A DNA stretch of 64,000 bases from a virus. The notes beneath the pieces were generated by a model. That model did no database searches, was not told where the DNA came from, and was given only the letters and a program-made list of their open reading frames with translations. The translations under genes and the position numbers were made by a program. The number at the start of each line of letters is the position of its first letter. The stretch's first letter is position 1. The stretch lies in the UHGV virus genome UHGV-1351772. One strand, given 5' to 3'. Shown one piece after another: positions 32,789-39,488 of the stretch.

Positions 32789-32812
32789 GTCTAAGCCCCG
32801 AAGGGCTTAGAC
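32789..32812 (-). terminator. strong rho-independent terminator downstream of the 764-aa structural gene
   Basis: gtctaagccc cgaa gggcttagac with long flanking A/T runs. Confidence 0.7.
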
Positions 32813-35672: not shown

Positions 35673-37235
35673 ATGAATAACAAAATGATGTTGATAACCG
35701 CCTTAGCCACATTATACGCTGAAAGTCTTCTGACCGATCCTGAAAAGGACCACGACATCATAAGAAAAGTGCTGTTAGAGGCTAAGCTTCCTGATTACGC
35801 AGAAGAAGGTGACGAACGTGCCGCCCTCGTCGAAATCAAGGATATCATCACATCCATCATAGACGGCGGTATGCCTTACGACCACACAAACGTCATGAAA
35901 CGTTTGAAACTGGCCACTACGCAAATACGTCCTCTATACGATACGATTACCAAATTCCTGGAAGATGATATTCCAGAAGAACCAGAAGCACGCATCGAGC
36001 ATCTTAATCGCCAAGTAGCACAATACTACTTTCAGTTACGTCAAGCTATTCAAGGCGTACAACTGAAACAAAAATTGGGTCGTACGTTAGGCGCACTGAA
36101 CGGCACTGAAACGCGTGTTGATTTACAAACGGCGCTCAACGACCTTAAGGATACCTTATCCACGTTCAGTGAACGCTCTCATAATAAGATTCCTTCTCTG
36201 GTAGGGGAATTGATTACTGATAATAAAGCACCTTTCGTGCATGTATTCGACTCTATCAGTAAGAAAGCGGCAGGGAACGGGTTGCGTACGGGGTGGAAAG
36301 CAATTAACCAAATGCTCGGTTGTAACAAAGGGATCACCGAAGAACTCTGGCTGATGCCTGCTCTTCCCTTTAACTGTAAATCATTATTCAGTTTATTGCT
36401 CTCTATTAGCATTCCTGTATTCAACACTCCAGAAAAGGTGATGGCGAATGTTAAAGGTGACCTACAACCGGTTATTCTGGATTTAAGTTTAGAAAACGAA
36501 TTGGATGTTAACTTGGCTTACGCGTATCAAGCACTTTACGGACACTTTGAAGGTACAGCTCCGGTAATGGTTGCACCTGAAACGGCAACTGACGAAGAAA
36601 AAGCGCTACACAATGCACAAATGTCAGATTACCTCTGTAGTAAAATGCGGGCAAACGGTTGGGAGTATATTTTCCAAAAACACACAAACTCCGATTTTAA
36701 AATTCACTATTTGAATGATTTGATTTTAGATTTAAAACGTCGAGGTTATCATGTAGCTGGAATACGCGGAGACTATTTCGGTACTATCAGCAAAGCAGGA
36801 CACGGTAACGGCATTGCGGGTAGTGACATTAAAGAAATTTATCGTATCGCGCGAAACATCCAAGTGGTACGTAATCGTGGTTTCCTCTTAGCACCACACC
36901 AAATCTCACCTGAAGGCAAAAAATTAAAAGCACTCGACCCAGCAAGTTTCTGTAAGAGCTTACCTGGTCGTGGTCTTTACGACAACTGCTCTAGCTTAGA
37001 CAACGAAGCTGACGGTGAGATGTATTTTAACAAACGTGTCGTCAGCGGACACAGCTATTTAGAAGTACAACGCGGTAAACACCGTACCATTATTGATACC
37101 AAAGAAGCTTATCATTATACTGTAATACCTTTCCGTGATGTTGGCATTTTGCCATGGGATTGTGATAAAGAAGAAACTGTAACAGCCTCGTCGATTAACG
37201 TATTTACCGGCGGCATGGGTGACGAACTCTTTTGA
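35673..37235 (+). CDS. hypothetical protein (520 aa)
   Basis: AAGGATG RBS; plus-strand island. Confidence 0.5.
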   Translation: MNNKMMLITALATLYAESLLTDPEKDHDIIRKVLLEAKLPDYAEEGDERAALVEIKDIITSIIDGGMPYDHTNVMKRLKLATTQIRPLYDTITKFLEDDIPEEPEARIEHLNRQVAQYYFQLRQAIQGVQLKQKLGRTLGALNGTETRVDLQTALNDLKDTLSTFSERSHNKIPSLVGELITDNKAPFVHVFDSISKKAAGNGLRTGWKAINQMLGCNKGITEELWLMPALPFNCKSLFSLLLSISIPVFNTPEKVMANVKGDLQPVILDLSLENELDVNLAYAYQALYGHFEGTAPVMVAPETATDEEKALHNAQMSDYLCSKMRANGWEYIFQKHTNSDFKIHYLNDLILDLKRRGYHVAGIRGDYFGTISKAGHGNGIAGSDIKEIYRIARNIQVVRNRGFLLAPHQISPEGKKLKALDPASFCKSLPGRGLYDNCSSLDNEADGEMYFNKRVVSGHSYLEVQRGKHRTIIDTKEAYHYTVIPFRDVGILPWDCDKEETVTASSINVFTGGMGDELF

Positions 37236-37239
37236 GTCT

Positions 37240-37257
37240 GGGGAGCTTCGGCTCCCC
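37240..37257 (+). terminator. hairpin with UUCG loop, weak terminator
   Basis: ggggagc ttcg gctcccc directly after stop of 35673..37235. Confidence 0.45.
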
Positions 37258-37340
37258 CTTATGACCCCTTATGCGTCTCGAAAAACAAAAAAAAACAGAA
37301 GGCTATTAATTATGAACGGGAAACAACTACTGAACTAAGT

Positions 37341-37363
37341 AGGGGGTGGTGACAACACCCCCT
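37341..37363. terminator. GC-rich hairpin (agggggtg...caccccct), terminal member of repeat series
   Basis: T-rich run follows on plus strand; same architecture as hairpin 3 of the two full units. Confidence 0.4.
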
Positions 37364-37378
37364 TTATTAGTTAGTAAC

Positions 37379-37540
37379 TTATCTCCTTACAGGTGGTTGG
37401 TGAACATTGTGGTTGTTAACCGTTTTCGGTGCCGCAACGAGGCCGAGACGAACATATTCGTCCATGCGTTGGTTAAACTGAATTTGTTTTTCACGATTTC
37501 GCATCGCGGTATTGGACATCTGTATTTGATATTCGTTCAT
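37379..37540 (-). CDS. small basic protein, paralog A (53 aa), not in ORF track
   Basis: Manual translation MNEYQIQMSNTAMRNREKQIQFNQRMDEYVRLGLVAAPKTVNNHNVHQPPVRR; AAAGG RBS-like. Confidence 0.35.
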   Translation of the reverse strand: MNEYQIQMSNTAMRNREKQIQFNQRMDEYVRLGLVAAPKTVNNHNVHQPPVRR

Positions 37541-37599
37541 TTTTCATTACCTTTCGTAATGTTGTAAAAACGTCAACAACTTTATGTGTTGACACCGTA

Positions 37600-37687
37600 C
37601 AGCAGAGACTGTTCCGCCAGTCTCTGCTGCTTTAACTTCTCTTTCGAAAAGTTAAAGCTATGAAAAGGGGTGCTTCACCACCCCTTT
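37600..37687. other. conserved three-hairpin structured element, copy 1 (candidate sRNA or intercistronic RNA structure)
   Basis: hairpin1 37600-37629, hairpin2 37629-37658, hairpin3 37664-37687 plus T-run. Confidence 0.4.
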
Positions 37688-37694
37688 ATTTTAT

Positions 37695-37865
37695 TTAGTA
37701 GTTACTTCTCCTTTCGGTGAAGATTTGTACTCGAGGATTATTAGAAGGTTTAAGCCTTTTATTTAATCCTAGCTGTTGAACTTCTCTTAATCGTTCATTA
37801 AACCTCGCTTGTTCTGCATAGCTGTTTGAGATAGAAGTAAAGATACGTGTATTGTTGTTAGTCAT
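37695..37865 (-). CDS. small basic protein, paralog B (56 aa), not in ORF track
   Basis: MTNNNTRIFTSISNSYAEQARFNERLREVQQLGLNKRLKPSNNPRVQIFTERRSNY; GTGAGG RBS 7 nt upstream. Confidence 0.35.
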   Translation of the reverse strand: MTNNNTRIFTSISNSYAEQARFNERLREVQQLGLNKRLKPSNNPRVQIFTERRSNY

Positions 37866-37921
37866 GTTAAAACCTCACACGAGTTGGGGATTAAGCTATT
37901 ACGCGGGTGTAATAGCAACAA

Positions 37922-38006
37922 GTAGGGACTGTACCGGCAGTCCCTACTGCTTTATCTTCTCTTTCGAAAAGATAAAGCGCCTATGGGGAGTGTTGGCGCA
38001 CTCCCC
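37922..38006. other. conserved three-hairpin structured element, copy 2
   Basis: hairpin1 37922-37947, hairpin2 37949-37978 (28/30 identical to copy 1, one compensatory pair), hairpin3 37985-38006. Confidence 0.4.
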
Positions 38007-38015
38007 TTTAGGTTG

Positions 38016-38168
38016 TTACCTCCTCTCAACTGCCAACTGGGTGTTTCTTGAATATGCAACTTTGGGCTGTGTTAACGTTGGTTGCGCTATTTCACTAACC
38101 CTTCGCTGAAACTCAAGTTGTTTTGTTGACAACTCGTTTAACCGTCGAAACAGCAGTTCATGTTTCAT
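38016..38168 (-). CDS. small basic protein, paralog C (50 aa), not in ORF track
   Basis: MKHELLFRRLNELSTKQLEFQRRVSEIAQPTLTQPKVAYSRNTQLAVERR; AGGTGA RBS-like. Confidence 0.35.
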   Translation of the reverse strand: MKHELLFRRLNELSTKQLEFQRRVSEIAQPTLTQPKVAYSRNTQLAVERR

Positions 38169-38212
38169 GAACTCATCACCTATGTCGATTTTGCGAAAAT
38201 AAATAAAGTGTA

Positions 38213-38238
38213 CCCCTAATCCTTTTCGGGATTAGGGG
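38213..38238. terminator. bidirectional rho-independent terminator
   Basis: cccctaatcc/ggattagggg stem with T-runs both sides. Confidence 0.6.
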
Positions 38239-38244
38239 TTGCTT

Positions 38245-39060
38245 TTATTTAGTCGCTACGTATTGAACATGGCCACATTCCTTACATTCCACGTTGGCTT
38301 TCGGGATTGTCAGGCCGGTTAAAGGAACACGTATTTGGTACTGTGCTCCACATTCTTCACAAACAAAATCGTGTTCTGGATAAACACGACCTTCTAATTT
38401 CTCTTCTTTCCTTAGTGTGCCTGCTAAGAACAGCATCGCACCTAACGCTTCATTAATCTGCTGTTCCCATTCTCCGTCTAACGGGTAAGCGAACGCACGA
38501 GTCAACGTTTCCACCATCTCTGGAGTATTACTTACATAAACGTGTTTCAGTTCAAACTCAACACGCTGTAAGCCAAACAATACGCGTGCTGTTACAGTAA
38601 CATTATCCAACGTTTGTGCAAATACAACGGGATTATCGTCGCCGTACATCGCGAATAACGCAGCACGTTCGTATTCGATATCACTCCACTCGATTAGTTC
38701 TACAGATTTAATCTCTTCCGCAATCGTAGCATTACCGAACGTTTCATGTTCCAATAATCCGACGATAACTTCATTCAACGATTTCAATTGCTGTAAACGA
38801 ATCACAGGATCGGTGTTCACGATAAGCAAACGATGCATTCTGGATTTCAACCAATTAATCGTTCCTTCTACACCGCCCCCAAACGAGCAGATGCTTATCA
38901 CTTCAGGTTCGCGAAGGATAAGAGTGGATTTTCCTGCTGCCGTACTCAAGTAGAGTTTAAAAGACTTATCGCTGGACTCTGCAACGATGGCAATGTCTTC
39001 AGTTGGAACAAAGTTTTCATTGCTCAGTCCACGCGGAAAATAATCTTTAATGGTAATCAT
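38245..39060 (-). CDS. hypothetical protein with C-terminal zinc-ribbon (CxxC...CxxC)
   Basis: FVCEECGAQ...VECKECGHV. Confidence 0.45.
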   Translation of the reverse strand: MITIKDYFPRGLSNENFVPTEDIAIVAESSDKSFKLYLSTAAGKSTLILREPEVISICSFGGGVEGTINWLKSRMHRLLIVNTDPVIRLQQLKSLNEVIVGLLEHETFGNATIAEEIKSVELIEWSDIEYERAALFAMYGDDNPVVFAQTLDNVTVTARVLFGLQRVEFELKHVYVSNTPEMVETLTRAFAYPLDGEWEQQINEALGAMLFLAGTLRKEEKLEGRVYPEHDFVCEECGAQYQIRVPLTGLTIPKANVECKECGHVQYVATK

Positions 39061-39113: not shown

Positions 39114-39257
39114 TTAACCACGACCAGTGCACTGTGCAACGGAGTTACCGTTGTCGATGCAAGTGTCGTAGCCTTTGTCGATGTCCAGATACAGGCAACC
39201 CAGAACAACAGCGATAACAACAGCGAAAATAGCTTTTTTGTGTTTTACAGAAATCAT
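39114..39257 (-). CDS. small lipoprotein-like peptide (47 aa), not in ORF track
   Basis: MISVKHKKAIFAVVIAVVLGCLYLDIDKGYDTCIDNGNSVAQCTGRG; AGGAG RBS 8 nt upstream; host-like codon bias. Confidence 0.4.
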   Translation of the reverse strand: MISVKHKKAIFAVVIAVVLGCLYLDIDKGYDTCIDNGNSVAQCTGRG

Positions 39258-39460: not shown

Positions 39461-39488
39461 TTCCCGTTACCCATAGAGGTAACGGGAA
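39461..39488 (-). terminator. rho-independent terminator
   Basis: ttcccgttacc/ggtaacgggaa stem, A-run upstream on plus. Confidence 0.6.

Follow-up and report, generated by a model that had tools for sequence, protein, structure and literature searches.

REP/BIME sequences are enterobacterial palindromes that are dispersed genome-wide, with a consensus of their own and an associated transposase, and the attC sites of integrons are imperfect palindromes with extrahelical bases, conserved in structure but not in sequence and accompanied by an adjacent tyrosine-recombinase integrase. The promoter-early stem-loops (PeSLs) of T4-type phages are short conserved intergenic cassettes that combine stable GC-rich stem-loops with a strong sigma-70-type promoter, and there are about 50 of them per genome (Arbiol et al. 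2010, PMC2839356). Here we describe a locus to be set beside these systems, at positions 37341-38238 of a 64,000-nucleotide stretch (the window) of the virus genome UHGV-1351772. On the minus strand, downstream of a zinc-ribbon gene, paralogous small genes are repeated there in a hyperplastic tandem array, with copies of a three-hairpin element between the genes. We read these elements, with moderate confidence, as intercistronic hairpins of the terminator and leader type that also provide the recombination junctions of the small-gene array. The original prediction, made before any database search, had proposed among other roles that the hairpins are processing and stability structures punctuating a duplicated small-gene operon; this proposal is supported, as the paralogous genes are real, the hairpins are located between same-strand cistrons, and the strand evidence favors the minus strand.

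The array consists of three paralogous minus-strand open reading frames (ORFs) of 50-56 aa, present in the ORF list where the original prediction had placed them. In order of transcription they are a type C gene (38016-38168; 50 aa, pI 10.9), which is the first cistron, a type B gene (37695-37865; 56 aa, pI 11.3), and a type A gene (37379-37540; 53 aa, pI 10.4), which is the last. The types align on the motif KQxxFNxRxxE and a basic C-terminal motif, in agreement with the shared core noted earlier. The two copies of the ~88-nt three-hairpin element are likewise found as described, both as direct and as inverted repeats; they form a 58-nt direct repeat (37601-37658 and 37921-37978, 86% identical) with a spacing of 320 nt, and both fold with a z of about -10 on either strand.

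Read on the minus strand, each element begins with hairpin 3, which belongs to the upstream cistron. The GC-rich copy at 37985-38006 is the 3' hairpin of the type C cistron and has a T-tract on its plus side; in the type B cistron the 3' hairpin is the copy at 37664-37687, which on either strand has an A-tract on its 5' side and a T-tract on its 3' side. Hairpin 2 follows at 37949-37978 and 37629-37658, and marks the cassette junction in each element; it is a conserved AU-rich inverted repeat of 13 bp with a GAAA loop, including on the minus strand one U·G pair that is a C·A mismatch on the plus strand. Its 30-mer matches twice in 64 kb where zero matches are expected, and the copies are, as claimed, identical at 28/30 positions, the two differences being a compensatory A-T to T-A swap. 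Hairpin 1 starts the leader of the next gene: the copy at 37921-37948 has a perfect 11-bp stem of class B (AGTAGGGACTG) and starts the type B leader, the copy at 37600-37629 has a perfect 12-bp stem of class A (CAGCAGAGACTG) and starts the type A leader, and both have 6-nt loops. The leaders contain further minus-strand hairpins, with an 8-bp stem (37895-37916) that follows hairpin 1 and precedes the type B Shine-Dalgarno sequence, and two hairpins (37572-37593 and 37545-37561) 5' of the type A start codon in a fold of 37541-37690.

The neighboring genes and the identity of the helicase show that the source is a PhiKZ-type jumbo phage, kin of SPN3US and phiEaH2. Pattern scans and a helicase-based search of viral and metagenome collections recovered ~13 distinct close relatives with genomes of 222-228 kb that share the locus, and across these the small genes fall into six paralog types, A to F. 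The small ORFs are real genes because diverged alleles have ratios of nonsynonymous to synonymous change (dN/dS) of 0.1-0.2, as judged from the sequence alignments. Purifying selection is evident in all five paralog types tested (dN 0.04-0.15 versus dS 0.4-0.7), with dN/dS values of ~0.12 for type C (9 genomes with orthologues), ~0.2 for type B, and ~0.13 for type A. All three genes in the window match the family profile (E=4e-19 for type C and E=8e-23 for type B). A profile search of 5.8 billion proteins restricts the family to this phage group (66 clusters), and its 15 representatives in a second set of 1.84 billion proteins all belong to the same phage clade; no informative names were found among the profile matches in either set, and there are zero matches to Pfam and PHROGs. 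At the syntenic site SPN3US has two annotated members of 48 aa (ACQ60_gp194/gp195) and pEa_SNUABM_29 has one (pEaSNUABM29_00087), related to the others with profile E values of 1e-16 to 1e-8, and all of them are between the helicase and zinc-ribbon genes. phiEaH2 and Asesino have none at this site.

The locus thus defines a small-protein family that annotation has overlooked. The PGAP pipeline catches one of two small ORFs in each of the two RefSeq records checked (L187 and L188), annotating the type A ORF while the genes of types C and F go uncalled. The proteins are hydrophilic and basic (GRAVY -0.8 to -1.2, pI 9.8-11.7), and an AlphaFold2 model predicts a single helix at residues 3-31 (pLDDT 79) followed by a disordered tail. 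No hydrophobic segment of the membrane type is present in them, the top 19-aa Kyte-Doolittle window being <=0.16.

The arrays hold between two and four cassettes, and their order varies between the ~13 genomes. With 'el' denoting the three-hairpin element, the window has the order C-el-B-el-A, L072 and L187 have C-el-A, L054 has el-E-el-A, L079 and L082 have C-el-E-el-D, L075 has C-el-B-el-D, L074 has F-el-B'-D, and L188 has F-el-A. The array is therefore a mosaic that is joined at hairpin 2: the upstream ORF co-segregates with hairpin 3 and the 5' flank of this hairpin, hairpin 1 (which has three stem classes) and its leader co-segregate with the downstream ORF, and hairpin 2 is common to all cassettes. 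Insertions, deletions, and replacements between related phages are bordered by element copies in this manner throughout the ~13 genomes. The hairpin 2 of L075/L081 is a chimera with arms from two variants, leaving a mismatch, and therefore records a crossover inside hairpin 2. The two-gene arrays of L072 and L187 are the expected residue of recombination between two elements.

The three-hairpin element is, then, the joint between two cassettes. A cassette comprises one half of hairpin 2, hairpin 1, the structured leader, the Shine-Dalgarno sequence, the ORF, hairpin 3, and the other half of hairpin 2. The 30 nt of hairpin 2, kept identical in all cassettes, most likely also serve as a patch of homology for the deletion and duplication of cassettes and for their exchange between phages.

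Constraint and strand were analyzed in an alignment of 20 distinct element copies. The original prediction had made its reading depend on conservation of the hairpins at the syntenic locus of relatives, and they are conserved there, in these 20 copies and in the ~13 genomes with the locus. Minus-strand pairing is present in 98.8% of the alignment cells. Hairpin 1 covaries across classes at 7/11 pairs, and hairpin 2 is both constrained and strand-asymmetric. Twelve of its 13 pairs are invariant in the 20 copies, and it has no differences, versus ~11-14 expected, between genomes in which the flanking genes have a dS of 0.5-0.7. Its minus-strand fold is the more stable one in 20/20 copies, with a mean difference of 4.5 kcal/mol; hairpin 1 is neutral in this respect and hairpin 3 is slightly better on the plus strand. 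Single-arm changes in hairpins 1 and 2 (in L032, L078, and L081, and in hairpin 2 of L075/L081), along with the fixed U·G pair, all give G·U on the minus strand and A·C on the plus strand, and for hairpin 3 there is one case each way. Because hairpin 2 is steadier on the minus strand and the single-arm changes are G·U there, we regard this as moderate evidence that the strand on which hairpins 1 and 2 are transcribed and functional is the one that is sense for the small genes. The GAAA loop that had been identified as a GNRA tetraloop is present in the window, but it is not conserved, and across relatives the loop is GAAA, CAAA, CGAA, or GAAAA.

The hairpin loops show a second type of variation. 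We compared the window hairpins at 37600-37629, 37664-37687, 37341-37363, and 38212-38239 with those of L032, L048, L053, L054, and L072-L082. Genomes that are near-identical have 6-nt hairpin 1 loops that are exact reverse complements of each other (TTACCG/CGGTAA, TATAGG/CCTATA, TTGGCG/CGCCAA, and TTGTAG/CTACAA), as are those of hairpin 3 (TGACAG/CTGTCA and CTGACA/TGTCAG), of the hairpin at 37341 (GTGACAA/TTGTCAC, inverted in L054), and of the zinc-ribbon-gene terminator (TTTTCG/CGAAAA). The terminators at 39461-39488 and 32789-32812 have point changes or none, without loop inversion. The hairpin 2 apex is never inverted in 23 copies, and the scans covered both strands, such that inverted copies were detectable. 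Hairpin-bounded small inversions are among the events catalogued in plastid genomes, and the loop reversals seen here similarly point to frequent small inversions or template switching at the palindromes. Because palindromes flipped in this way can gain matched changes in their two arms by events at the DNA level and nothing else, such changes are by themselves no proof of selection on RNA. The compensatory swap in hairpin 2, which the original prediction had presented as a classic signature of such selection, is present, but the argument built on it is weaker than stated, as the loops of hairpins 1 and 3 flip. This is a general caution for the method: with loop-flipping hairpins, compensatory stem changes alone are not evidence of RNA-level selection.

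These reversals are also a signature expected if the hairpins are DNA-level elements only, that is, recombination-prone or protein-bound palindromes (forming cruciforms or hairpins) that are kept for cassette exchange or for a phage DNA-binding protein, with the RNA folds incidental. The mapping of crossovers to hairpin 2 and the upkeep of perfect palindromes regardless of their sequence agree with this explanation. A double-stranded or cruciform site predicts no strand asymmetry, however, and hairpin 2 keeps its U·G (minus) or C·A (plus) pair in all copies with its apex uninverted, only on the minus strand do the single-arm changes of hairpins 1 and 2 produce G·U, and the hairpins are positioned exactly at cistron boundaries on the coding strand. 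We consider a role at the DNA level alone to be unlikely.

The plus strand has its own terminator-like features. A terminator scan flags both hairpin 3 copies and the 37341-37363 hairpin on the plus strand only, confirming that the better T-run of hairpin 3 is on that strand, and hairpin 1 is also terminator-like there; on the minus strand the tail after hairpin 3 has 0-5 U. The original prediction had raised the alternative that the elements are ~90-nt plus-strand small RNAs (sRNAs), arranged as hairpin, hairpin, and terminator and antisense to the small mRNAs, in type I toxin-antitoxin-like or regulatory pairs. Besides these T-tracts, a TATG resembling the PhiKZ late promoter is present on the plus strand 20 nt upstream of copy 1, and related jumbo phages are known to make short sRNAs that run from transcription start site to terminator. 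Neither copy 2 nor the class C copies have the upstream TATG, though, and no conserved plus-strand promoter is found 5' of the elements. Hairpin 2 has its C·A mismatch on the plus strand in all copies and is the less stable there in each of the 20, single-arm changes of hairpins 1 and 2 are A·C on that strand, and the overlap between element and ORF amounts to the stop codon at most. Rfam searched at a permissive E-value gives no family at threshold, the best being ylbH (25 bits versus 50) and SymR (20 versus 61), with FsrA also sub-threshold. The likeness to type I toxin-antitoxin systems is in the 50-60 aa ORFs beside structured RNA-like elements; the idea of a type I toxin is removed because the proteins are hydrophilic and basic, without a membrane-type segment, rather than membrane peptides. 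Antisense sRNAs of this kind are thus very improbable, and neither they nor toxin-antitoxin-like modules are supported.

Returning to the intercistronic terminator and leader hairpins, we envisage the array as the tail of an operon that would be driven from a putative early promoter near 39.3 kb. Hairpin 3 would be the 3' hairpin of the upstream cistron and a copy of a bidirectional convergent terminator shared with the helicase gene; weak against sense transcription and strong against antisense transcription, it would end or attenuate each cistron. Hairpins 2 and 1 would form the conserved start of the structured leader of the next cistron. The module's most likely effect in the sense RNA is to attenuate or segment transcription and to protect mRNA ends, and on the plus strand hairpins 1 and 3 with their T-rich tails may stop transcription that enters from the helicase side. 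Termination, stabilization, and insulation are in this way the predicted functions of the module, with the early-operon promoter near 39.3 kb a prediction of the same standing.

Several observations weigh against this reading. Every role given to the hairpins at the RNA level is one that we infer, and given the loop inversions the covariation in hairpins 1 and 3 is no proof of RNA function. The sense-strand U-tract after hairpin 3 is short, and sense termination by hairpin 3 may be absent. The strand asymmetry comprises only about five events, in copies that are phylogenetically related, and one copy of hairpin 3, that of L078, is mismatched (A·C) on the minus strand. Gene conversion instead of selection could account for part of the invariance of hairpin 2, and in L064 the apex that resembles hairpin 2 is oriented opposite to that in pEa29 and L060. 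No promoters for individual cassettes were found in the array. More specifically, there is no sigma-70-like promoter inside either element copy, and the putative early motif GATAtATTA...TAGGTGAGA is absent from the element.

The conservation of hairpin 2 in sequence as well as in structure raises a further possibility, in which hairpin 2 with hairpin 1 would be a leader site for a phage factor, possibly the small basic proteins themselves, acting in autoregulation of translation or, like lambda N with boxB, in processive antitermination that carries transcription past the hairpin-3 terminators. Hairpin 2 is found only beside this gene family, in every genome and in the distant relatives, the proteins are small with pI values of 9.8-11.7 and a conserved helix motif (KQxxFNxR), and there are terminators inside the operon. 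The arrangement is reminiscent, as a lead, of lambda N/nut boxB and HK022 put, in that a small basic protein gene is located by a leader hairpin with a GNRA-like loop and has terminators downstream. There is, however, no similarity to known RNA-binding or antitermination proteins in Pfam, PHROGs, and profile searches, nor any sequence or profile similarity to the lambda proteins, and the polymerase is a phage multisubunit enzyme. The variable loop would be unusual for a site read through its loop, and hairpins 2 and 1 are missing from the cistron that opens the array in the window. A relation of the lambda N/boxB type would draw on co-location, protein basicity, and hairpin-2 conservation and nothing further, and protein-RNA modules seem to us a quite unlikely explanation. 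A broader form of the idea, with a similarly slim chance of being correct, would make each cassette a self-contained protein-RNA unit; hairpin 2 would be bound by the small basic proteins or by a phage factor (for autoregulation or for antitermination on the phage polymerase) and would also be the exchange site of an integron-like, recombinase-independent system that diversifies accessory, possibly host-interaction, genes.

The element is tied to the small-gene family and is not a genome-wide regulatory repeat, because the covariance model and the protein profile match this locus alone. The covariance model finds only the two known copies in the 64-kb window and a single copy, at this locus, in a complete 222-kb relative, and the protein profile matches only this locus in that genome. 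A hairpin-2-like motif as a genome-wide promoter was rejected, as TTTTCSNAAAR has 3 matches versus 1.85 expected in the window and TTTTTCGCAANGAAAAA occurs once per jumbo genome. A replication origin beside the helicase gene was also set aside; element copies vary from one to three between near-identical genomes, and a switch in GC-skew is absent.

Weak covariance-model matches (E 0.003-0.08) are present upstream of the first small ORF in SPN3US, pEa29, and L064, and provide a view of what may be the ancestral form. In these three genomes the module consists of two GC hairpins with an AT-rich hairpin, whose apex is TTTTC-G(C)AA-GAAAA, between them. This middle hairpin forms by pairing of one GC hairpin's T-tail with an A-rich stretch, the complement of the tail that belongs to the GC hairpin facing the other way. 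The ancestral-type module is a tail-to-tail terminator pair. In the window, the zinc-ribbon gene has a minus-strand terminator (38212-38239) followed by a T-tract, together spanning 38190-38239, and the 19-nt stretch CTTTATTTATTTTCGCAAA that is 3' of the terminator is identical in L060. This stretch is a remnant of the ancestral hairpin-2-like element of SPN3US, pEa29, and L060.

At the other end of the array, the convergent junction with the helicase gene contains a GC-rich hairpin at 37341-37363. For the type A cistron this is the 3' hairpin; for the plus-strand transcript from the helicase side it is, with the T-tract, a terminator. It had been described as a reduced third copy of the element and is better read, from an alignment of ten genomes, as the plus-strand terminator of a conserved module 3' of the helicase gene. 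This module (37236-37340, plus strand) adjoins the array and is outside the cassettes; it is conserved in ten genomes including SPN3US, phiEaH2, and pEa_SNUABM_29. It contains a covarying hairpin (37240-37257), an invariant TTATGCGT (TTATGYGT, 37269-37276), and an A-tract (37281-37296, 8-11 A), and leads into the hairpin and T-tract at 37341-37368. We note that TTATGYGT at 37269-37276 resembles the TATG of the PhiKZ late promoter. The module could be the 3' untranslated region of the helicase gene or a plus-strand sRNA of ~95 nt. Hairpin 3 resembles the 37341 hairpin at the end of this module, and its plus-side T-tract was most simply inherited from the convergent helicase-side terminator.

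The promoter proposed for the operon is based on a motif, GATA(t/g)ATATTA-N3-5-TAGGTGAGA, found on the minus strand at ~46884-46863, 39330-39304, 32757-32736, 11800-11778, and 6508-6487, each copy being shortly 3' of a GC-rich terminator with a TTTTATTTTT tail. Early promoters of jumbo phages have been described as AT-rich conserved motifs, and by analogy this GATA-type motif is a candidate early promoter of the virion RNA polymerase. Downstream of the copy at ~39.3 kb come a 47-aa ORF, the zinc-ribbon gene, and the array. The 47-aa ORF (39114-39257, minus strand), between the putative promoter and the zinc-ribbon gene, codes for a hydrophobic product (MISVKHKKAIFAVVIAVVLGCLYLDIDKGYDTCIDNGNSVAQCTGRG) and is conserved and annotated in RefSeq relatives (WP_262880969.1).

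The array is flanked by a divergent DnaB helicase gene (35673-37235, plus strand) and by the 271-aa zinc-ribbon gene (38245-39060, minus strand), which is upstream of the small genes in transcription, and a PhiKZ-type major capsid protein gene is also among its neighbors. The helicase shares 85% amino acid identity with its counterpart in Erwinia phage phiEaH2 and 83% with the one in Salmonella phage SPN3US, and phages of this group encode their own multisubunit RNA polymerases. The DNA of the locus has zero blastn matches among 50,697 phage records. The clade also includes two RefSeq 'plasmids', L187 (NZ_CP173450.1, from E. coli strain 98232) and L188 (NZ_CP134650.1, from Enterobacter ludwigii), and we note that jumbo-phage relatives have entered the database as circular 'plasmids' of ~222 kb from Enterobacteriaceae isolates of clinical and wildlife origin; this is suggestive of a carrier state or of co-assembly. 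The metagenome contig L080 (CYGL01000001.1, 1140-1400) matches the window exactly throughout the locus apart from scattered 1-nt insertions, about a dozen in number; these are probably assembly errors, and the resulting truncations of types A and B were rejected as biology. An exact 16-mer scan of viral contigs gave 48 matches, two of which are true relatives, and the remainder are consistent with chance. Among this remainder, thirteen related viral contigs of 23-44 kb (L005, L006, L009, L010, L033, L034, L036, L039, L041-L043, L047, and L051) carry the 16-mer CTTCTCTTTCGAAAAG inside a different conserved hairpin, which is followed by a GC-rich hairpin (ggcctcacgtggaCCTTCTCTTTCGAAAAGGccaaggcctgacggggcgg...).

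The locus provides a clean natural case of modular gene shuffling in a lineage of nucleus-forming jumbo phages, in which an invariant 30-nt hairpin marks the joints of an array that varies in copy number. The terminators and middle promoters of the phage-encoded polymerases are poorly defined, and hairpin 2 offers a compact cis-element as a candidate for transcription or RNA stability; the interest of the locus would rise if hairpin 2 were a specific protein-binding or polymerase-control element.

Compared with described systems, parts of the element correspond to familiar terminators. The GC-rich stem between an A-tract and a T-tract at a convergent gene junction is like a bidirectional or convergent terminator, but the middle hairpin in the clade of the window is a discrete, conserved, and strand-asymmetric 13-bp stem, beyond what overlapping tails would need. 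Hairpin 3 and the 37341 hairpin fit the pattern of Rho-independent terminators only on the plus strand, given the short U-tails on the minus strand. As with REP/BIME sequences, these are stable intercistronic hairpins that by analogy may be able to shield upstream mRNA from 3' exonucleases and attenuate transcription; the element here occurs at a single locus and with a single gene family, and a REP-type repeat is rejected on account of this locus specificity. Integrons are similar in having promoterless small-gene cassettes bounded by palindromes, with order and number varying between relatives, and the half-sites here would rejoin if a cassette were circularized. An integron is nonetheless rejected, as no integrase or recombinase is present, by annotation, among the 225 annotated features of NZ_CP173450.1, and hairpin 2 is a near-perfect palindrome conserved in sequence and not just in structure, the opposite of attC.

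The closest behavior is that of the PeSL cassettes of T4-type phages, though without a promoter. Both PeSLs and the element described here are located just upstream of small genes without annotated functions in a hyperplastic region, and for both, recombination between copies explains insertions, deletions, and replacements between close phages. They differ in that the element here has no sigma-70-type promoter, in a phage group that uses its own RNA polymerases, is restricted to one locus (two copies in the 64-kb window and one in the complete 222-kb relative), and is composed of three hairpins of which the middle one is invariant. The locus is a new example of a known theme, that of intercistronic hairpin cassettes and modular shuffling, rather than a new RNA system, and is found here in a jumbo phage with its own polymerases.

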